A stretch of DNA of 64,000 bases, from positions 27,584 to 91,583 of the forward strand of contig JBEKYR010000018.1 of assembly GCA_049510745.1 (NCBI GenBank). Direction: 5' to 3'. The DNA comes from Verrucomicrobiota bacterium. GTDB taxonomy: Bacteria; Verrucomicrobiota; Verrucomicrobiia; Limisphaerales; Palsa-1400. Within the stretch, counting starts at the first letter, position 1. Each line of letters begins with the position of its first letter. A program made the position numbers and the translations under genes. Below, piece by piece: positions 16,560-27,357 of this stretch. The notes beneath the pieces were generated by a model. That model was not told the DNA's origin. It did not search any database and worked only from the letters and a program-made list of their open reading frames with translations.

Positions 16560-16889
16560 TCAGGCTGTCTGCAATTTCTCTTTCCGTGGCAGGAAGCGGA
16601 TTTCAACGCGCTTATTCACCGCTGCCGCGATTCGTTTGAGCATCGTAAGAGAGTGCCCTTCGTAATCGGAATCTTCGAGGCGGCTAATCACCGAGGCGGT
16701 TGTTCCGATCAACTTGGCAAGCCGCTCTTGCGTCAAGCCCGCTTGCTCTCTTAGCTCGTAAATCTTCCGTGCAAGCTCATCCTCGGCTCTGGCTTGCTCG
16801 AGTTGTGCCGTGCGGTCTGGTTTGCCGTCATAATAGCGGCGATGCAGAATTTGCACCGCGTTCGATGTTGCGTTTCTCTTTTTTGGCAT
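16560..16889 (-). CDS. XRE-family HTH protein (orphan antitoxin-like)
   Basis: LREQAGLTQERLAKLIGTTASVISRLE...YEGHSL. Confidence 0.8.
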   Translation of the reverse strand: MPKKRNATSNAVQILHRRYYDGKPDRTAQLEQARAEDELARKIYELREQAGLTQERLAKLIGTTASVISRLEDSDYEGHSLTMLKRIAAAVNKRVEIRFLPRKEKLQTA

Positions 16890-16923
16890 ATTCACTCCTC
16901 CAGAATGAAGCTTTGAGAAAACT

Positions 16924-19238: not shown

Positions 19239-19361
19239 GTAATGCGTCAGTGACGGCGGGCCTGGGAATGGTAGGGTCGCCTCGCCGAGGCGACCACCCG
19301 GCAAGAACCACCCTCGGACGGCTCGGCGAGCCGTCCCTACCATCCATCACTGACGCATTAC
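19239..19361. mobile_element. 123-bp MITE with IS66-like ends
   Basis: 18-bp TIRs gtaatgcgtcagtgacgg / ccatcactgacgcattac (17/18 match), flanked by 8-bp direct repeats gtatttcg (19231-19238, 19362-19369). Confidence 0.8.
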
Positions 19362-19420
19362 GTATTTCGTAGTTGGCCATCTGCGGGCAGTGGATACCCC
19401 CCCTCCCCCTGTTGTTGTGG

Positions 19421-19480
19421 GGTTTGATTTAGTCTGATTTAGTCTGATTTAGTTTGATTTTTGGCTTGATTCGGCTTGAT
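19421..19480. repeat. 10-bp period tandem repeats
   Basis: ggtttgattt agtctgattt agtctgattt agtttgattt, then ttggcttgat tcggcttgat. Confidence 0.7.
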
Positions 19481-20129
19481 GGAAACCTGCTGGAAGGGGC
19501 CGGACCGGCAAATTTTGCCGGTGGAACGCCGGGCCGGATGGCGGGCGACGGGTTGCCGGCGGATCGGCTGGAGCCGAAGCCCGTCCTCCCCCATGTGATG
19601 ATTACCAGTTTCATCAAATGAGGAATTATCACGTTTTTTTGGAATATGCAAGAGCAATCTATCGAAAAGTTGTGAAGTCAGAATCAGTGAATCAGTGAGT
19701 GGGGCGATGGAGGCTGGGAATTGCCACGATAGGGCACAAAAAGAGCGGGCGGGGAGTTGGCCGAAGGGATTGACCGGGAGTTTCTGAATTTCCCGCCGGC
19801 CGCTCGATGGTTTTCCGCCGGTGCTGTCGGAAGGATTGAAAAAACGATTGTTTGAGCCGCCGCCGCGTTCGCTGAAATCAACGAGAAAAGTTAAAAACCG
19901 GGCGAGCCTATGGGTGCCTCCTGCGACAAAAGCGAACCAAACTATGGGTTGATAAACATTTCATTTTGCCTTTATTTCCCTGGTGATTAGGGCGGCGAAT
20001 TCGATGTCGCGATAAAATATGCGATTATGCGGGACTGACCTGTTTTCCGGCAGGTGATGTTTTGTTCGATGAATAACCAGCGATCAAATTTGCAGTCCAC
20101 ACCAACCATTTACATGGAAAAGACAATGG

Positions 20130-21287
20130 TCAATCGCGGAATGGAGCGATATGGGCGCTGTAGCGGAGTTTGGCCGAGCTAAAAAACCCGCCACATTGAC
20201 TCCGGCGCGTGCAGCCCTCGCATTCTGGCATATATTCATTTTTCCAGTCCGAAATGCTCTTGCGGCTGAACTGTGTGAGCGCCGGGTCCAGGACGCACAG
20301 TTGATGATTGTATACTGAAACGGCCATTCTCGCCCGATGGAGCAGTTCGACGGCTTCTCGCAATTGAGGCTGATAATCCTTGGGGTCAATCCAGAGATCA
20401 TTCAGGTTGATTTTTGTAAATCCTGTAATCTCAAGCCCCATAAGAGCGACATGGTCGCAAAACGTCAGGTTTCGGCGGATAAAGAGGGCCAAGTCGGGCA
20501 GACGTTCGTATGTGGCCTTGTGAATGACGACGCGGATTTCCACTCGCACGCCCGCGCTTTTCAAGTTGATTATGCCGCGGATAGTGTCATCGAACGCCCC
20601 GTCAGCCTGAACAACGTAGTCGTGAATCGAAGAAATGTCAGAATAAACGGGTGTTCCTATCATGAGGTCCGGGTGCGCAACGGCAGCAAGAGACTTGGCG
20701 TAGTTCAAGTCCTTGAATTGCCTGCCGTTTGAGAGAATATGGAGCGCCGTCGAAGGGAGATAACTCTTGAAGTGTCGAACAATGTCGATGAGTTTCTGCC
20801 CTAGGAGCGTTGGCTCACCACCGGTGAGGCCAATTGCTTTGGTCTCAGGAGAAACGAGAGGAATCATCGTCAGAATCTCGTCCGCGAGATAGGAGTCTTC
20901 GTTGTCCTTTGGCGGTTGCGAACACATCAAACAGAAGTTGTTGCATCGCTCGGTTGTAAGGAAGAAGTTATGTGGGGAATTCCTGCGATACAGCGTGCGA
21001 AGGCTGTTCCGCTTTTGATTGAGTCTTACAATGTCCCCCTCATCCAAGTACGACAACTCCTGCTCCAACAAAAATGAGTTTCTAGGCACGGCTCCGGAAG
21101 GCTTTTCAAAGAAGAGGTAACCCGCAAAACCTGGCGGGATGTTTTCTGGTGCCTTCCGGAAAAGTAGAAATTCATTCGAACGAAGGGGGCGCACAAAATT
21201 CGGGTTCACCGTGACCCTGCGAACGGTCACTTCCGGCTCAGTGACCTGGCTCAGCGGAGAAACGCATGTAGATGACAATTTCAACAT
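20130..21287 (-). CDS. hxsC: His-Xaa-Ser system radical SAM maturase HxsC
   Basis: TERCNNFCLMCSQPP, TGGEPTL, LSNGR, HDYVVQA.GAF, YNHQLC, SISDWKN, CEGC...CGG; operon context. Confidence 0.88.
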   Translation of the reverse strand: MLKLSSTCVSPLSQVTEPEVTVRRVTVNPNFVRPLRSNEFLLFRKAPENIPPGFAGYLFFEKPSGAVPRNSFLLEQELSYLDEGDIVRLNQKRNSLRTLYRRNSPHNFFLTTERCNNFCLMCSQPPKDNEDSYLADEILTMIPLVSPETKAIGLTGGEPTLLGQKLIDIVRHFKSYLPSTALHILSNGRQFKDLNYAKSLAAVAHPDLMIGTPVYSDISSIHDYVVQADGAFDDTIRGIINLKSAGVRVEIRVVIHKATYERLPDLALFIRRNLTFCDHVALMGLEITGFTKINLNDLWIDPKDYQPQLREAVELLHRARMAVSVYNHQLCVLDPALTQFSRKSISDWKNEYMPECEGCTRRSQCGGFFSSAKLRYSAHIAPFRD

Positions 21288-21291
21288 GACA

Positions 21292-22752
21292 TCACCATCG
21301 TACCCAGCCTTCCAGCACCCTTCTCGCTTCGGGATCATCCTCCATCTTCTGGATTATGTACCGGAAGACACCCATGTTCTTCGTGCAAAATCCACTGAGG
21401 GCTTTGTGCCCGACAAAATCGTGTTGCGTGGCATAATGATAGTCGGGGTCGCAACCACAGTATGGTAAGAAGGCGCACTCCTCGCACATAGGAACCGATT
21501 CCGCGACAGATTCCTCTAACGGCGTAAGTAACGCAGGAGAAGTCATCATCTGCTCATAGCTATCTTTAAGCAAGTTCCCCATGCAGAAGATTTTGTCTCC
21601 CATCTCCGCCTTCATGCGAGCCTCGTCAGAAGGATACACTTCACCGTTGTAGTTAAAAATGACCCCTGCTATGCCGATGCCCGCTGGCGATTGGAGGTTC
21701 ACAAACCCCGTTCCATAAGGCGTGAGCATTTTCTGAAGAGCCAAAACCGTGTAGTATTCGACAAAGAAAAGCCCCTGCTTGTTGAGTTCAATGATGTAAT
21801 CGAGGCCGGTGCGATAGAATGTTTGCCACTCGCGGGCATCGTACTCATCAAAGCACTTAGTCTTTATGGCAAACCCAAAAGGACTCAGACTGCGAAGAAA
21901 TATGCCCCGGAAATCTTGCCTCACATACTCATCGACAATGTCGGTTACTCTGGTCAGACTCGCTTTGGTTGTTGTCATCAAAGCATTGACCCGGTACTTC
22001 CCCAATGCCTCCCGTGCCCGCCTTATGCCTTCTATGGTGATCTCGTAACTTTTGTTACCAGCGTTGGGCCTGTTGGTATTGTGGAGATCCTTTGGACCGT
22101 CCAAGGAAGTAGAAATCAACACGTTTTCATCACGACAGAAGTTCAAAATATCATTGTCAAGTACCGAAAGGTTGGTCGCAATCACAAACGCAAGGTTCCG
22201 CCGCTCGGTGATGTTGCGCTTATTTGCAGCAAGGACGATGTGCTTAATTAGCCCAAAATTGAGAAGGGGCTCTCCGCCTTGGAACTCGATCTTGATCGCC
22301 GGTGCCGGGCTCTTGAAAGTGAAGTCGATTGCCTTGTCTGCCATAAGGACAGTCATGTCGAAAGCGGTTCGATCCTCGCTCTGTCTGGAGACTTGGCAGT
22401 ACTTGCAAGAATGATTGCACCTCAGGGTGACCACGAACATGTGCAAACCAGTGAAATCCGCAATGCGCTTTCGCTTCGTGCGCGCTTTAAGCGTGACCAA
22501 ATCCATCGCGACATTGGAATCGGCGTCCTGAATGAAGTGCTTCGATTTAAGTGAATAGTAGAGCGGAGTATTTTGCGCGAGAGTCTTGTTAACGGTCGCC
22601 TCCAACTCAGGCCGCTTCAATACCTGCCATTCTCCCACCTCATTGACAGCCACATAACGCGTTCCGTCGAGACGAATGAAGCGGAAAGGAAGCAAACGAT
22701 AGCCTTTTTCTGCTGGCAAGTAATGCGCTTGCTCTTTGAAAACGGCAGGCAT
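21292..22752 (-). CDS. hxsB: His-Xaa-Ser system radical SAM maturase HxsB
   Basis: YRLLPFRF N-terminus, TLRCNHSCKYCQVS, EFQGGEPLLN, SLDGP, SDEARM, C-terminal CEEC...YCGCDP...FC; alternative TTG start at 22761. Confidence 0.88.
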   Translation of the reverse strand: MPAVFKEQAHYLPAEKGYRLLPFRFIRLDGTRYVAVNEVGEWQVLKRPELEATVNKTLAQNTPLYYSLKSKHFIQDADSNVAMDLVTLKARTKRKRIADFTGLHMFVVTLRCNHSCKYCQVSRQSEDRTAFDMTVLMADKAIDFTFKSPAPAIKIEFQGGEPLLNFGLIKHIVLAANKRNITERRNLAFVIATNLSVLDNDILNFCRDENVLISTSLDGPKDLHNTNRPNAGNKSYEITIEGIRRAREALGKYRVNALMTTTKASLTRVTDIVDEYVRQDFRGIFLRSLSPFGFAIKTKCFDEYDAREWQTFYRTGLDYIIELNKQGLFFVEYYTVLALQKMLTPYGTGFVNLQSPAGIGIAGVIFNYNGEVYPSDEARMKAEMGDKIFCMGNLLKDSYEQMMTSPALLTPLEESVAESVPMCEECAFLPYCGCDPDYHYATQHDFVGHKALSGFCTKNMGVFRYIIQKMEDDPEARRVLEGWVRW

Positions 22753-22757
22753 CCCAA

Positions 22758-23084
22758 TCAATCTTCCTCTGCAAGCGATGTGCCGGAGAATGCGTGCGCA
22801 AGGATCAAGTTCCTGAGCGGTCCTGCTTCGCGTCGAATGATCTCACGGAGGTCTTGATCCAAAAGCTCGTTGCAGAAGTCAGAGATGACCTGCTCCGGAT
22901 TGTTCTTATCGTGTTTGCCGACGAAATTAAAAATAACCGAGAGAGTCGAGTCCCGGCCCGGATTGATGATGACGGATGTTCTGTCAGCGAACCTGTACGC
23001 AGCCTTCTTTATGGCTTCCATCGAATAGATCGACGTATCCAACGAAAGAACGTATCCCGATGGATCCCGAGAAATCCCATTCAT
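22758..23084 (-). CDS. hxsD: His-Xaa-Ser system protein HxsD
   Basis: 108 aa with 'YSMEAIKKAAY' and 'FCNELLDQDLRE...RNLILAHAFS'; lies between the precursor and the radical SAM genes. Confidence 0.82.
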   Translation of the reverse strand: MNGISRDPSGYVLSLDTSIYSMEAIKKAAYRFADRTSVIINPGRDSTLSVIFNFVGKHDKNNPEQVISDFCNELLDQDLREIIRREAGPLRNLILAHAFSGTSLAEED

Positions 23085-23097
23085 GACCACAACAGGG

Positions 23098-23358
23098 TCA
23101 AAGTCCCGAAGAGTGCGAATCGTGCGAGGAGTGCGAATCGTGCGAAGAGTGTGAATCGTGATCGCGCATACCTGCACTTGCCGCTACAGGAACCGATGGC
23201 ACAATGACGAATTTTTGCGGCAGAGTCAATTGTTGGGCAACTGCCGGAGAGGCGTCTGAGCCTTGTGTTGTGAGCGCATTGACTGGAACCGTGTTGAGCA
23301 GCGCGGCGCTGGCCACGGAGAGTGACATCAGAAAGCCGAATTTTGTTTCTCGTTTCAT
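23098..23358 (-). CDS. hxsA: His-Xaa-Ser repeat precursor peptide HxsA
   Basis: 86 aa; signal-like N-terminus; C-terminal HDSHSSHDSHSSHDSHSS encoded by three 18-bp repeats (23107-23160). Confidence 0.88.
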   Translation of the reverse strand: MKRETKFGFLMSLSVASAALLNTVPVNALTTQGSDASPAVAQQLTLPQKFVIVPSVPVAASAGMRDHDSHSSHDSHSSHDSHSSGL

Positions 23359-23600
23359 ATATTTTTCTTAAACCACATCACACAGGCAATTTGCCCATAC
23401 AATTGCCAATAAAACACTTCTTTCAGTGTATAAATCGTAACCAATAAGACAGCGAAGTCAAGGGAAAAATTCAATTATATTTCTCTGGTCTTATGAAGCG
23501 AAGCGGGATGATCCCCACCCCCGCCACTGATTTGTTTCAGCCGCGGAGGGTTCGGCGTGGCACAGGGAGTGCAGCGGGACGTGCCTGCTGTTTGCGAAAT

Positions 23601-23882
23601 TTATCCCACTCGGACGAGTTCATTCTCCGTGCGGAGGTGGCGGGTGAACGGCGTGTCGATGTCCAGATCAATCAAATCCACCGAACGGCCGGTCAAATCG
23701 CTGACGCGCGCGCCCATGCGATAGAAAACCGACGGGGGCAGGCCGGAAACCGCCAAGTCGAGATCGGAAGCGGCATCACCCGACCCTTTGGCAGCGGAGC
23801 CAAAGACGTAAATCTCCCGTGCGCCGGCAGACTTGAGTTCGGCCGCGGCGCGCTTGATTAAAATGTCCGTCTCGGCGCTCAC
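23601..23882 (-). CDS. minimal nucleotidyltransferase (MNT antitoxin), orphan
   Basis: YVFGSAAKG...SDLDLAV...VDLIDL. Confidence 0.85.
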   Translation of the reverse strand: MSAETDILIKRAAAELKSAGAREIYVFGSAAKGSGDAASDLDLAVSGLPPSVFYRMGARVSDLTGRSVDLIDLDIDTPFTRHLRTENELVRVG

Positions 23883-24096: not shown

Positions 24097-27000
24097 TCAA
24101 TCTTCGGCGAAGAGATACTCCAGGTCGGACTTTGAGAGATTGCGGGCGAAGCCCTGTTCGCCGAGAACGTCGGCGATGGTCTGGGCTTTGCGCTGCTGCA
24201 ATTCCCAGATTTTTTCCTCGACCGTCCCCGGAGCGATCAAGCGGTAGGCGTTGACGGTCACGGTCTGGCCAATCCGATGCGAGCGGTCGATGGCTTGCGC
24301 CTCGACGGCGGGGTTCCACCAGGGATCGTACAAAATCACAGTGCTGGCCGTGGTGAGGTTGAGGCCCGTGCCGGCGGCGCGCAAGCTGAGCAGAAAAACC
24401 GCCGGGTCGGGATCGTTTTGGAACGCTTGCATGACCTGCTGGCGGTCTTTGGTGTCGCCCGTCAGGATATGGGTGCGAATCTGGCGGGCGGCGCATTCCT
24501 TCTCCAAGAGCCTGAGCATCCGCACAAACTGGCTGAAGAGCAGCACCTTCCGGTTCCCGGCCAGCAACGGCTCGAGCAGTTCAAACAACGTCTCCGTTTT
24601 GCCGGAAGCGGCGTCGTTGCCCACCAGGTCGGGATGACAGCAAATCTGGCGCAGGCGGGTCAAAGCGGCCAGGACGTGGATGGTGCTGGCGCGGACGCCG
24701 CGCTCGGCGACGGTGTTCATGACCTGTTCGCGGCTGCGGCGCAATTCGGCCAGGTAGAGCTTGCGTTGGGCCTCGCCCAGTTCGCAATCGCGCCGCAGCT
24801 CGATGCGGTCGGGCAGGTCCTGGGCCACTTCGCTTTTGAGGCGGCGCAACATGAGGGGGCGGAGTTTGGCGGCCAGACGGCGGCAGGCGATGCGTTGCTC
24901 GTCGCCCGCGTTTTCGCCGCGCGGTTCGTATTTTTCGCGGAACTTGGCCTGGGTGCCCAGGTAGCCGGGCTGGACGAAATCGACGATGCTCCAGAGGTCG
25001 AGCAGGCGATTCTCCAGCGGGGTGCCCGTCAGCGCCAAACGCTGGCCGGCCTGGAGTTGTTTGACCGAGACGCTGATCTGGGCGTCGGGATTTTTGATGA
25101 ACTGCGCCTCGTCGAGGATGACGACGCGAAAGTGAAATCGTTGCAGGGCCTCGAGGTCGCGCCGCAACAAGGCGTAATTGGTGACGATCAAGTCGTGTTC
25201 GGGGATTTGTCTGCGCAAATTGTGCCGCGCGGCCCCGCTCTCCAGCACCAGCACTTTGAGCATGGGCGTGAACCGGCTGGCTTCCCGCCGCCAATTGTGC
25301 AGCACCGAGGCCGGGCAGATGACCAGAACCGGCTTGCTGTGGCGATTGGCCGCCTTCATCCACGCCACCCAGAGCAACGCTTGCAGCGTCTTGCCCAGCC
25401 CCATGTCATCGGCCAGAATTCCGCCCAATTTGTGCCGGGTCAGGTGGCACAGGAAATTGAAACCGGCCCGCTGATACGGCCGCAGCTCGGCGTTAATGCC
25501 TTCGGGCAGAGGCGTCACCGGAATGCCGCTGAATTCGGCCAGATGGCGGCGCAGGGCCTGCCCTTCAGGCGAGTCGCCGAACCGCTTGAGTCCTTCTTCG
25601 TCAAGATGGGCCGCTTGTTCCAGGCCCAAGCGTTGCGGCACCGGGATCAGGCCATCGACGCCCAGATCGGCGAAGGTTTCGTGCGCCTCTTGCACGGCGG
25701 CGGCGTCCAATTGCAGCCAGCCGGCATCGGGCAATTTGACAAACCGCCCCGTGGCCGTCGCCAGCCGCTGCAAATCCGCCGCGGTCAACTTGACGCCCTC
25801 GGCTTCCCATTGGGCGGAAACCGAAAACCAGTCGATGCCGCTGCCCTGCAGGACCAGGCGCGGACGCAACGGGCGCGGCGCAAGGAACAAGCGATGAAAG
25901 GCCGGGTTGCCCAGGAACTCGGCCTCCTCGGGGCGGTCGGGCCAGACGGCCGCCAATTGGGCCGGAAAATTGTCATTGGCGTCACCGACCCACACGCCGG
26001 GTTCAGGCGTAAACCAGTCCAGGCGGTGCAACCATTGCACCGCGCGCTCCAGCCGCGGATCATCCAGAATTCTCGGCCTGCCCTTCATATCGACCTGCGG
26101 ATCGTCGCATTCCCACTCCTGCCCGGTCCAATGCCAGGCGCCGCCGTCGCCGTCCGCCCGCGCCTGCAGGCGCAAGCGCACCACGTCATCGACCAACTCG
26201 AAAACGAAGCGCGGCTGGGCGGTGTGGACGACACATAATTGGTCCCAATCCACCGCCGGCGCGACCTGGGTCTTGCGCAATTGGGTCAAGAGACGATGGC
26301 TCAATCTGCTGACCGGCAGCGTCTGTCTTTTCACCCACGAGTTGAGCAACTCGTCCGGGGGCGCGCTGCGCAACAAATAAAAAGTGCTCCCCACCAGCGC
26401 GATCGCCGGACGCCCGGCGAAGAATTTGACCGCGCTGAGCGGATGCCCTTCCCCGCCGGGCAAGGTCAACTGGTGCGTAAAAAACAACTCGGTGTTGATC
26501 GTTTGCAGGTGCGGCTTCAACTCCGTCAAGTGGCCGTCAAAGACAATCGGCTCGCCGCCCTGGGCCATGCGCAGGCGGCCTTTGCCGCCCCAGCGCACCA
26601 GCCACTGGAACAACTCCGTTCCGGTCAAAACAAGCGATTCCCACAACCCCTCCGGATCGGCGTGGTTCTGGGCCAGCCATTGGATGAATTCCCAGTCCTC
26701 GGCGGAGAAGAGTTCCTCCTCGTGCGTGGCGCGCGCGGCCAGATCGGCCACTTCATGGACCGTTCTGAGCTTTTCGCCCGTGCGCTGCCGCGAGACAAAA
26801 AAGGCGACCGAAAGCCCGTGCAAAGCCGAGTCTTCGCTGACCGGCCTGGGTTCGCAGGCCACGCGGATGGCGGCGCGGGGCGCGTCCAGGCGCGCCGGCG
26901 AGGAGGGGAAGTGCCACTGTTCGAGTTGGCGGACGAACTGCTGGTCTTTCTCCGCCTGCTCGATTTCCGCAAACCGCTTCAAATTGGCGTGGGGCTGCAA

Positions 27001-27357
27001 TTCCGTCGGCAGCGGCCGGTTGAAGCGCAGGAAAAGGATGGCCGTCTCCTCCAGGCGTTTTTTGCCCTGGGTGGAAACGAGGCGGGACCACCATTCGTGC
27101 GAGCCGAAGTCCTTGCGCGACAAGGACAACTTCTCGAAATAATCCTCCAGCAGCAGCCAGGCGCGCTGGGGGTCGCCGCAATTGGCGAAGATGTTGAGCA
27201 ACTCGGTGCGCTCGGCCACGGTCGCCTTGGAGTCGGAGAGTTCGCGGCGCAACTCGGCCTGCGGCCCGTAGGCCTTGGCCAGCACGGTATGGTGGGCGTC
27301 ATACTTGGTCGTATTGCCCGAGGCCGTGGCATTGGTTTTGCGCGAAGTTTTAGTCAT
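24097..27357 (-). CDS. SNF2/SWI2-family helicase
   Basis: LRPYQ, LADDMGLGKT, DEAQFIKN, LTGTPLEN, GTGLNLT, DPWWNPAVEAQAIDRSHRIGQ. Confidence 0.95.
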   Translation of the reverse strand: MTKTSRKTNATASGNTTKYDAHHTVLAKAYGPQAELRRELSDSKATVAERTELLNIFANCGDPQRAWLLLEDYFEKLSLSRKDFGSHEWWSRLVSTQGKKRLEETAILFLRFNRPLPTELQPHANLKRFAEIEQAEKDQQFVRQLEQWHFPSSPARLDAPRAAIRVACEPRPVSEDSALHGLSVAFFVSRQRTGEKLRTVHEVADLAARATHEEELFSAEDWEFIQWLAQNHADPEGLWESLVLTGTELFQWLVRWGGKGRLRMAQGGEPIVFDGHLTELKPHLQTINTELFFTHQLTLPGGEGHPLSAVKFFAGRPAIALVGSTFYLLRSAPPDELLNSWVKRQTLPVSRLSHRLLTQLRKTQVAPAVDWDQLCVVHTAQPRFVFELVDDVVRLRLQARADGDGGAWHWTGQEWECDDPQVDMKGRPRILDDPRLERAVQWLHRLDWFTPEPGVWVGDANDNFPAQLAAVWPDRPEEAEFLGNPAFHRLFLAPRPLRPRLVLQGSGIDWFSVSAQWEAEGVKLTAADLQRLATATGRFVKLPDAGWLQLDAAAVQEAHETFADLGVDGLIPVPQRLGLEQAAHLDEEGLKRFGDSPEGQALRRHLAEFSGIPVTPLPEGINAELRPYQRAGFNFLCHLTRHKLGGILADDMGLGKTLQALLWVAWMKAANRHSKPVLVICPASVLHNWRREASRFTPMLKVLVLESGAARHNLRRQIPEHDLIVTNYALLRRDLEALQRFHFRVVILDEAQFIKNPDAQISVSVKQLQAGQRLALTGTPLENRLLDLWSIVDFVQPGYLGTQAKFREKYEPRGENAGDEQRIACRRLAAKLRPLMLRRLKSEVAQDLPDRIELRRDCELGEAQRKLYLAELRRSREQVMNTVAERGVRASTIHVLAALTRLRQICCHPDLVGNDAASGKTETLFELLEPLLAGNRKVLLFSQFVRMLRLLEKECAARQIRTHILTGDTKDRQQVMQAFQNDPDPAVFLLSLRAAGTGLNLTTASTVILYDPWWNPAVEAQAIDRSHRIGQTVTVNAYRLIAPGTVEEKIWELQQRKAQTIADVLGEQGFARNLSKSDLEYLFAED

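Follow-up and report, generated by a model that had tools for sequence, protein, structure and literature searches.

A His-Xaa-Ser cassette with a short, acidic and unanchored HxsA precursor in a Verrucomicrobiota genome: a likely stripped-down variant of HXS defence

Introduction

His-Xaa-Ser (Hxs) systems, the original description of which is said to be that of Haft and Basu in 2011, combine a precursor peptide carrying His-X-Ser (HxS) triads, HxsA, with two radical S-adenosylmethionine (SAM) enzymes, HxsB and HxsC, and a small protein, HxsD. One such cassette occupies positions 20130-23358 of a 64,000-nucleotide stretch of Verrucomicrobiota DNA (the window; assembly GCA_049510745.1, contig JBEKYR010000018.1, positions 27,584 to 91,583), and the question raised by this locus is what a cassette of this kind does when its precursor is short, acidic and without a wall anchor. 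An earlier note, made from the sequence alone, treated the chemistry and role of such systems as uncharacterised and the locus as a candidate for an undescribed system. That premise no longer holds since the role of the Escherichia coli HXS system was published in 2026, with an anti-phage function, a mapped +8 Da change and an HxsC-HxsD complex (Li et al., Nat Commun; PMC13128918; statements made here on this article, as on PMC11499958 and PMC9062424, refer to the accessible parts of each).

According to PMC13128918, E. coli HXS blocks the entry of phage DNA; it acts on 110 of 113 phages, whose DNA enters the cell with a delay, and requires all four genes. The 214-aa HxsA of E. coli carries a peptidoglycan-binding domain in addition to its signal peptide and its five basic HxS repeats; it is exported to the periplasm, its N-terminal processing depends on HxsB, HxsC and HxsD, and mutation of the peptidoglycan-binding domain abolished defence. 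The +8 Da (+C/-4H) change was mapped to SHRSS, the last repeat, and HxsC pulled down HxsD, which indicates a complex of the two. The authors proposed that the basic repeats capture DNA electrostatically but called the chemistry and the mechanism unresolved; the reaction was not reconstituted, partly because the 214-aa HxsA was insoluble on overexpression. In their census, 99.6% of systems were ordered D-B-C-A and 99.7% were from Pseudomonadota. The findings reported here indicate that the Verrucomicrobiota cassette is likely a stripped-down, short-peptide variant of this defence.

The operon and its maturation proteins

The four Hxs open reading frames (ORFs) were all intact and lay on the minus strand in the order A-D-B-C, with gaps of 13, 5 and 4 nt between hxsA and hxsD, hxsD and hxsB, and hxsB and hxsC, respectively. 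All ORFs and the span of the tightly packed operon in the earlier note were confirmed, and translation likewise returned its 86-aa precursor ending in six HxS triads, its 108-aa protein with LLDQDLRE and its two distinct radical SAM enzymes with the cysteine motifs that had been assigned to them:

23098..23358, minus strand: hxsA, 86 aa, with a signal-like leader, a spacer containing the hydrophobic motif FVIVP, a C-terminal HxS array and a 2-residue tail
23275..23358, minus strand: predicted HxsA leader, residues 1-28, with a basic N-terminus, conserved F9-L10, a hydrophobic stretch and V-N-A at 26-28
23107..23160, minus strand: HxS core array, six in-register His-X-Ser triads with X = D,S,D,S,D,S
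22758..23084, minus strand: hxsD, 108 aa, containing LLDQDLRE (TIGR03976)
21292..22752, minus strand: hxsB, radical SAM maturase, 486 aa, CNHSCKYC (TIGR03978)
20130..21287, minus strand: hxsC, radical SAM maturase, 385 aa, CNNFCLMC and CEGC...C (TIGR03977)
23434..23461, minus strand: candidate sigma-70 promoter upstream of hxsA, 9/12 consensus matches

The start of hxsC is most likely the ATG at 21287, as judged by homology. Sigma-70-like sites were at chance level (4 found, 3.7 expected from shuffles), as was the number of terminators in the same scan.

That HxsB, HxsC and HxsD belong to the families to which they had been assigned was evident from NCBIfam scores of 597.2 bits for HxsB (cut-off 370), 392.7 bits for HxsC (cut-off 267.9) and 73.9 bits for HxsD (cut-off 50). 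The proposed check with Hxs models thus succeeded for these three proteins but not for the precursor, which fell below all four curated HxsA cut-offs (TIGR03979, 31.2 against 121.65 bits; HxsA2, 20.2 against 48; HxsA3, 22 against 65; HxsA4, 25.4 against 55).

The radical SAM cysteines of HxsB were C112, C116 and C119 and those of its auxiliary-cluster region C423, C426, C432 and C456; the remaining one of five C-terminal cysteines, C434, was not conserved, and the Pfam SPASM score was below cut-off. The corresponding sets in HxsC were C115, C119 and C122 and C331, C356, C359 and C365, and in HxsD, D76 and R80 were invariant among 72 homologues. Identity to a Klebsiella plasmid system, in which the Cys numbering matches that of residues mutated in PMC13128918, was 33% for HxsB and 34% for HxsC (i.e., near 33% for both enzymes) and 24% for HxsD. 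Residues required for defence in E. coli were kept at this locus, namely C116/C119 and C423/C426 of HxsB, C119/C122 and C356/C359 of HxsC and Y20, D76 and R80 of HxsD.

Among solved structures no close relative of HxsB or HxsC was found; the best relatives of HxsB were SPASM-type maturases, including ChlB, and that of HxsC was BlsE, a weak match. The HxsC model (pLDDT, i.e., predicted local distance difference test, 94) consisted of a generic radical SAM barrel and an extra N-terminal beta region, and its best fold matches, viperin and SkfB, were tied (Z 19.6 and 19.1, root-mean-square deviation (rmsd) 2.9 and 3.5, 224 and 234 aligned, respectively) in a comparison that barely covered the first 70 residues. 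A viperin-like role was rejected, given a weak PADLOC match of HxsB to pVip and an NCBIfam viperin score for HxsC of 27.3 against 180. The HxsD model (pLDDT 88) showed a small alpha/beta fold, with a long helix at the C-terminus and the order beta-beta-alpha-beta-beta-alpha, for which the best fold match was an unrelated alpha/beta domain (Z 7.4, rmsd 2.6, 71 aligned). Foldseek gave weak Rpb11-like rows for HxsD, none at E <= 0.001, and no PqqD-like row, as might be expected of a RiPP (a peptide made by the ribosome and modified after translation) recognition element, appeared among the fold matches listed. The earlier note had put HxsD forward as a peptide-presenting factor, a role that it may have; in PMC13128918 its partner is HxsC.

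The HxsA precursor

The C-terminus of HxsA reads (HDS-HSS)x3-GL, and the protein stops two residues past the array. This run of six in-register triads was the only one in a six-frame translation of the 5.6-Mb genome, which also contained 52 runs of two triads and 6 of three; in the search for a second HxsA the six three-triad runs resembled, as judged by eye, frames over non-coding repeats. With six His, three Asp and no basic residue, the array has a charge of about -2.7 at pH 7 and about 0 at pH 6, as opposed to +3.2 and +5.4 for the Klebsiella core. A Pfam search of HxsA gave no match and no C-terminal domain, and there is no peptidoglycan-binding domain in a protein that ends so soon after its array.

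The leader may act as a signal peptide; its N-terminus is basic and its peak 11-residue hydropathy was 1.86 (2.20 for Klebsiella HxsA). HxsA could be aligned with 52 other short precursors, the leaders of which have the consensus K-[K/R]-x-F-L-x-P; F-L was present in 49 of the 53, and the last part of the motif reads F-L-x-S here instead of the usual F-L-x-P. Of the 48 short precursors with a recognisable hydrophobic motif, 39 had it 14-15 residues before the first His. Each triad kept its His and its Ser across short precursors, and the X position was free. Two other kinds of leader were considered and rejected. A twin-arginine translocation (Tat) leader, of which the motif is R-R-x-F-L, did not fit a set in which RR occurred in one of 53 precursors and KR in 25, with KF here; the genome encodes TatC, which says nothing about HxsA. 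Nor did a class III prepilin leader (motif, G then F-x-x-x-E), since Gly -1 was present in 4 of 53 precursors, including this HxsA, and Glu +5 in none.

Compared with E. coli HXS, the system shares the four gene families, the Fe-S Cys motifs and the HxsD residues as well as a signal-like leader, tandem His-X-Ser triads and the lack of a dedicated peptidase or exporter. It differs in gene order (A-D-B-C as opposed to D-B-C-A), in the size of HxsA (86 aa with a C-terminal array as opposed to 214 aa), in having no peptidoglycan-binding domain, in its X residues (Asp/Ser as opposed to Arg/Ser) and in its last motif (SHSSG as opposed to SHRSS). Also similar is the short-precursor system of NCBIfam (HxsA2 NF038296, HxsA3 NF038309, HxsA4 NF038313; TIGR03976-03979), which has the same enzyme families and the order hxsA2-D-B-C, but from which the present precursor diverges in its acidic array, its variant leader and its low HxsA2 score. 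Of the aligned short precursors, 49 of 53 matched NF038296 at E <= 0.001. Cassettes annotated in RefSeq as hxsA2-D-B-C on Nostoc and Paraburkholderia plasmids, and as hxsA2-B-C in Acidiphilium, mean that the short architecture is already catalogued. Thus the system itself is known, and this copy is one of many, with similar ones in cultured bacteria; what sets it apart from the E. coli system is its short, acidic and unanchored precursor. A literature search, from which subscription journals were mostly absent, found no experimental test of the short form and, beyond the 2026 work, only passing mentions in the accessible literature (PMC9062424). Neither HxsA2 nor cyclophane occurs in two text supplements of PMC13128918, and the short class seems to have been under-counted in the census of that article, as far as its accessible parts show, as that census began from HxsA proteins.

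Distribution of short and long precursors

Loci were gathered from genomes, plasmids, phages and metagenomes (L-numbers; G-numbers denote genomes). The metagenome set comprised the best 80 of 581 confirmed matches and was biased toward the HxsB neighbourhood of this locus, and L020 is this same locus in another assembly. A precursor with a tail of at most 15 residues was called short, and both strands were searched. Four loci were excluded as near-duplicates and two as distant, which left 89. Precursors were exclusively short at 64 of these and exclusively long at 13, and both kinds occurred at one; none was found at 11, most of them on short or cut contigs. Where at least 2.5 kb was available on both sides (21 loci), the corresponding numbers were 16 short-only, 4 long-only and 1 with none. 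Less biased genome samples leaned toward the long form, which accounted for 5 of the 6 other hits within the phylum of the host, and in the phylum of G440 seven further hits were divided into 5 long-only, 1 short-only and 1 with both. A profile built from the 53 short precursors matched 540 clusters (50% identity) at E <= 1e-10, and 149 of the 150 best hits ended 2-6 residues after an array of 5-12 triads. On this sequence record the short form is a stable, common design and not a truncation.

Array charge differed between the two forms. Arrays of long precursors were positive in 10 cases, zero in 1 and negative in none (n=11), whereas those of short precursors near this enzyme were negative in 25, zero in 14 and positive in 27 (n=66) and those of a wider short set negative in 31, neutral in 36 and positive in 82 (n=149). 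These counts indicate that basic charge is typical of long forms, optional in short forms and reversed here. The tails of long HxsA varied as well, with peptidoglycan-binding domains in L105, L107 and L108 and Sel1 in L021, L023 and L059. In a tree of 95 HxsB sequences (quick IQ-TREE, midpoint root, several long branches) 9 changes were required to account for the long form, at least 6 of them forced by well-supported branches. This locus fell in a clade of 10 (SH-aLRT 100) of which six members were short-only, two had only a long Sel1-bearing HxsA, one (L023) had both and one had none found. Leader and array as a conserved unit with exchangeable tails would be the simplest reading of these sequences.

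Two further observations concern the precursors at these loci. Short HxsA paralogues occurred in tandem, two or three per operon, at L025, L036, L048, L050, L056, L061, L062, L064 and L080, and often one bore Arg or Lys and another was neutral or acidic. The long HxsA-Sel1 genes (L021:10685-11488, L023:10643-11395, L059:4084-4713) lay downstream of hxsC on the opposite strand, with DUF4236 or S1/P1 nuclease genes nearby.

The system was patchy in its distribution and often on mobile DNA. HxsB was above cut-off in 1 of 41 related genomes, i.e., this one, and across the phylum 7 of 401 genomes had it, a count to which this one contributes. HxsB homologues were present on 345 plasmid records and 2 phage records; 274 of the plasmid records were predicted to be conjugative, although the records are not independent because 316 of the 345 are from Klebsiella. 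Transfer across phyla from L013, a locus labelled Bryobacteraceae with an HxsB 75% identical to this one, is not claimed, as mis-binning is possible for its source, an 8-kb contig from a metagenome-assembled genome.

Here the operon lies on a low-GC islet, as the earlier note had observed:

19966..23490, no strand assigned: low-GC islet, GC 0.499, with host repeat elements at both borders

The GC content of the operon was 0.509 as opposed to 0.614 and 0.630 in the flanks and 0.603 in the genome, and a value as low was seen in only 0.47% of 10,747 genome windows of equal length. GC at third codon positions was 0.53-0.61 in the operon genes as opposed to 0.77 and 0.82 in flanking core genes. The islet consists of the four hxs genes only and therefore encodes no peptidase or exporter, again in agreement with the earlier note; metal-uptake genes and conjugation genes were likewise absent from it. 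The islet is an insertion, with an empty site in G004 and G012; in those two genomes the transglutaminase gene follows immediately on the SNF2 gene, and here about 4.9 kb separate the two. This adjacency was noted in 2 of 12 relatives compared, the other 10 stretches having different neighbours.

Genes beside related Hxs loci were surveyed as 220 ORFs of 73 loci, selected by a longest-ORF rule by which some are spurious. Recurrent neighbours were integrase, resolvase, ParB/RepB, conjugation and primase genes, together with S1/P1 nucleases (5 of 73 loci), a small methyltransferase family (7), a stand-alone peptidoglycan-binding protein (4) and di-haem CCP_MauG proteins (5). PADLOC indicated defence-like neighbours at 8 loci, from 72 ORFs picked by hand among the 220, a choice without a baseline that does not show enrichment. 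The only homologue of these accessory genes in the present genome was a distant S1/P1 nuclease (26% identity) on another contig.

Modification chemistry

That the HxS array is modified in a RiPP-like pathway, as the earlier note had proposed, agrees with PMC13128918. As to the kind of modification, radical SAM enzymes are established to form cross-links in His1-X2-X3 motifs, and triceptides are defined by Aromatic1-X2-X3 motifs in the precursor (PMC11499958), a pattern present six times in HxsA as His-X-Ser. Triceptide synthases (HtkB, HaaB, YhhB) resemble the present system in that a His1-X2-X3 precursor is encoded beside a radical SAM enzyme with an auxiliary-cluster domain (PMC11499958). 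The strict three-residue register of the array, which matches the His1-X2-X3 pattern of cyclophane synthases, is the basis for the idea that the SPASM-like HxsB makes cross-links from the His ring to Ser as in three-residue cyclophanes.

This idea is possible but tentative because the published change maps to one motif and because HxsB fails the cyclophane-synthase models. A cyclophane cross-link corresponds to -2 Da, whereas the sole measured HXS change, in E. coli, is +8 Da; in its accessible parts PMC13128918 maps one such change to one five-residue motif and reports no -2 Da series. HxsB scored far below the cut-offs of YhhB (68.8 against 445), GrrM/OscB (54.1 against 310), AmcB (52 against 425) and XyeB (43.4 against 450), and the HXS system differs from triceptide synthases also in having two enzymes and HxsD. 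By mass arithmetic, +7.969 Da would equal one added carbon unit plus oxidative cross-links, +CH2-6H being the same as +C-4H. Recomputation of m/z 714.5 on a Klebsiella HxsA, which is not from the strain of the article, did not reproduce +8.

Function and alternative explanations

On balance the locus is probably an envelope-acting anti-phage cassette of the HXS type, the modified HxS array of which must act by means other than simple positive charge. By orthology with E. coli, HxsB and the HxsC-HxsD pair would cut the 86-residue HxsA and modify it covalently in the cytoplasm, with leader and spacer motif possibly recruiting the enzymes and side-chain cross-links rigidifying the triads; the matured His-X-Ser peptide would then reach the envelope and hinder entry of phage DNA without a wall anchor or basic charge. 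With an acidic array and no anchor, any activity would need to reside in the modified His/Ser scaffold, which may be metal-bridged, and not in Arg charge, and the C-terminal domains of other HxsA (peptidoglycan-binding, Sel1 or none) would serve as exchangeable carriers of the leader-array unit. Counted in favour of such a cassette were the family membership and kept residues of HxsB, HxsC and HxsD, the mobile and patchy distribution of HxsB, including the empty sites and the plasmid and phage records, the stability of the short form, the exchange of carriers and the defence-like neighbours at 8 loci.

Several findings weigh against this explanation. Defence in E. coli needs the peptidoglycan-binding domain and is proposed to act through DNA binding by basic repeats, and HxsA of this locus has neither. 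The last Ser of SHRSS, essential in E. coli, is replaced by Gly in SHSSG. Acidic arrays are a minority even of short forms (31 of 149 negative), and the closest relative by precursor, L023, also has a long Sel1-bearing HxsA, which was not found in this genome.

In one alternative the product would be a small secreted RiPP that binds metal, chelating transition metals through a modified His/Asp-rich peptide, or is otherwise non-defensive, the anti-phage role being confined to the long, basic and anchored subfamily. Such a product would suit an array of six His and three Asp without basic residues, tandem paralogues of different charge as found in RiPP clusters, and the CCP_MauG and small methyltransferase genes beside 5 and 7 of the 73 loci. 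It is rather unlikely, as one enzyme trio serves both long and short precursors in a single clade (SH-aLRT 100), mobile-element and defence-like neighbours are frequent, and the islet is without metal-uptake genes. More doubtful still is an incomplete cassette, inactive or auxiliary, in which the short peptide depends on an anchored partner, either a long HxsA or a separate protein, since lost from this islet. The coexistence of short HxsA and long HxsA-Sel1 in L023 and the presence of the long form only in L021 and L059, the separate peptidoglycan-binding protein downstream of hxsC in 4 of 73 loci, the failure to find a homologue of either partner in this genome (94% complete) and the truncation of the neighbouring HEPN gene are all consistent with such a loss. 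However, 16 of the 21 well-flanked loci were short-only, the four ORFs are all intact here, as is every catalytic residue tested, and on complete plasmids from cultured bacteria hxsA2-D-B-C occurs without a long HxsA in the stretch examined.

The block to DNA entry might also serve entry exclusion, its main target being conjugative or other mobile DNA instead of phages. The predicted conjugative plasmid records (274 of 345, with the dependence among Klebsiella records noted above) point this way, as do the type IV secretion genes that adjoin L045 and L078, and plasmid transfer was not among the assays in the accessible parts of PMC13128918. Inhibition of 110 of 113 phages by E. coli HXS (PMC13128918), together with the chromosomal position of this copy on an islet without conjugation genes, makes this the least probable of the three alternatives. 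The favoured anti-phage explanation also has a bolder form, an unlikely one, in which the true HXS warhead would be a radical-SAM-stapled poly-His-Ser peptide of about 20 residues, free in the envelope, that blocks phage DNA entry independently of charge and perhaps by metal bridging, with long HxsA presenting the same peptide on swappable carriers. If that were so, HXS would be a widespread RiPP-based anti-phage defence and the electrostatic model would be overturned.

The importance of the locus lies in the two questions left by PMC13128918, i.e., what chemistry underlies the +8 Da change and by what means HxsA stops DNA. As HxsA has neither wall anchor nor basic charge here, it offers a ready natural control for the published model: protection by this variant would refute the electrostatic model, and lack of protection would show that members of the Hxs family have taken on different functions. 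For mass spectrometry and nuclear magnetic resonance, a substrate of 86 aa may be easier to handle than the 214-aa HxsA.

Insertion site and neighbouring genes

Apart from the Hxs islet, the insert contained a duplicated snf2 3' end, an MntA-like gene with a cut partner and multi-copy host repeats:

23601..23882, minus strand: MntA-like nucleotidyltransferase of a mobile MNT-HEPN pair, with host-like GC, outside the operon
23583..23608, minus strand: stub of a HEPN-type partner gene, cut after about nine codons
23973..24039, minus strand: SNF2 helicase gene 3' end, duplicated over 67 nt (90%)

The partner is tentatively labelled as of the HEPN type from its R-x-H-like motif, NCBIfam having given no match; it was full-length in 4 of 5 relatives examined and truncated also in G016. 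The antitoxin of this pair (23583-23882) belongs to a cluster of 139 members at 90% identity. The 67-nt duplicate is a possible integration scar. At its 3' end, the core SNF2 helicase gene (24097-27357) adjoins differing genes in most relatives (L109-L120), and this site may be prone to rearrangement or insertion. PADLOC helicase matches of the SNF2 gene were not counted as defence, the gene being core (23 of 25 genomes).

On the other side of the operon, 19239-19965 contains stacked multi-copy host repeats, among them a palindromic element (19239-19361) and 10-nt tandem repeats (19422-19463); these elements had 54 genome matches, and such elements can give spurious His-Ser-Ser frames. Farther away, an HTH_3 antitoxin-like gene (16560-16895) lies between a sigma-54 regulator and an inositol-monophosphatase-like gene, outside the stretches that match relatives. 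No tRNA was found within the window, and an Atlas search returned unnamed clusters only.

Among the accessory genes of related loci, the small methyltransferases, one class I SAM family of about 170-210 aa with pairwise identities of 25-47%, lay beside short-precursor operons in 7 of 73 loci (L036:3541-4065, L045:4014-4559, L050:4956-5579, L057:10813-11313, L061:508-1062, L094:5581-6099, L098:6573-7103). Two that were tested passed no NCBIfam cut-off, no homologue was found in the present genome, and the family may represent an accessory tailoring enzyme. The stand-alone peptidoglycan-binding protein, which looks membrane-anchored, was encoded downstream of hxsC and followed by CCP_MauG genes (L064:3940-4374, L080:5678-6121, L087:3442-3846, L092:3307-3774), and may correspond to the anchor of long HxsA in split form. 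Finally, short-precursor cassettes were present on a Leptospira phage record (L019, KF114877.1) and on a viral contig (L100), which suggests phage-borne defence against superinfection.

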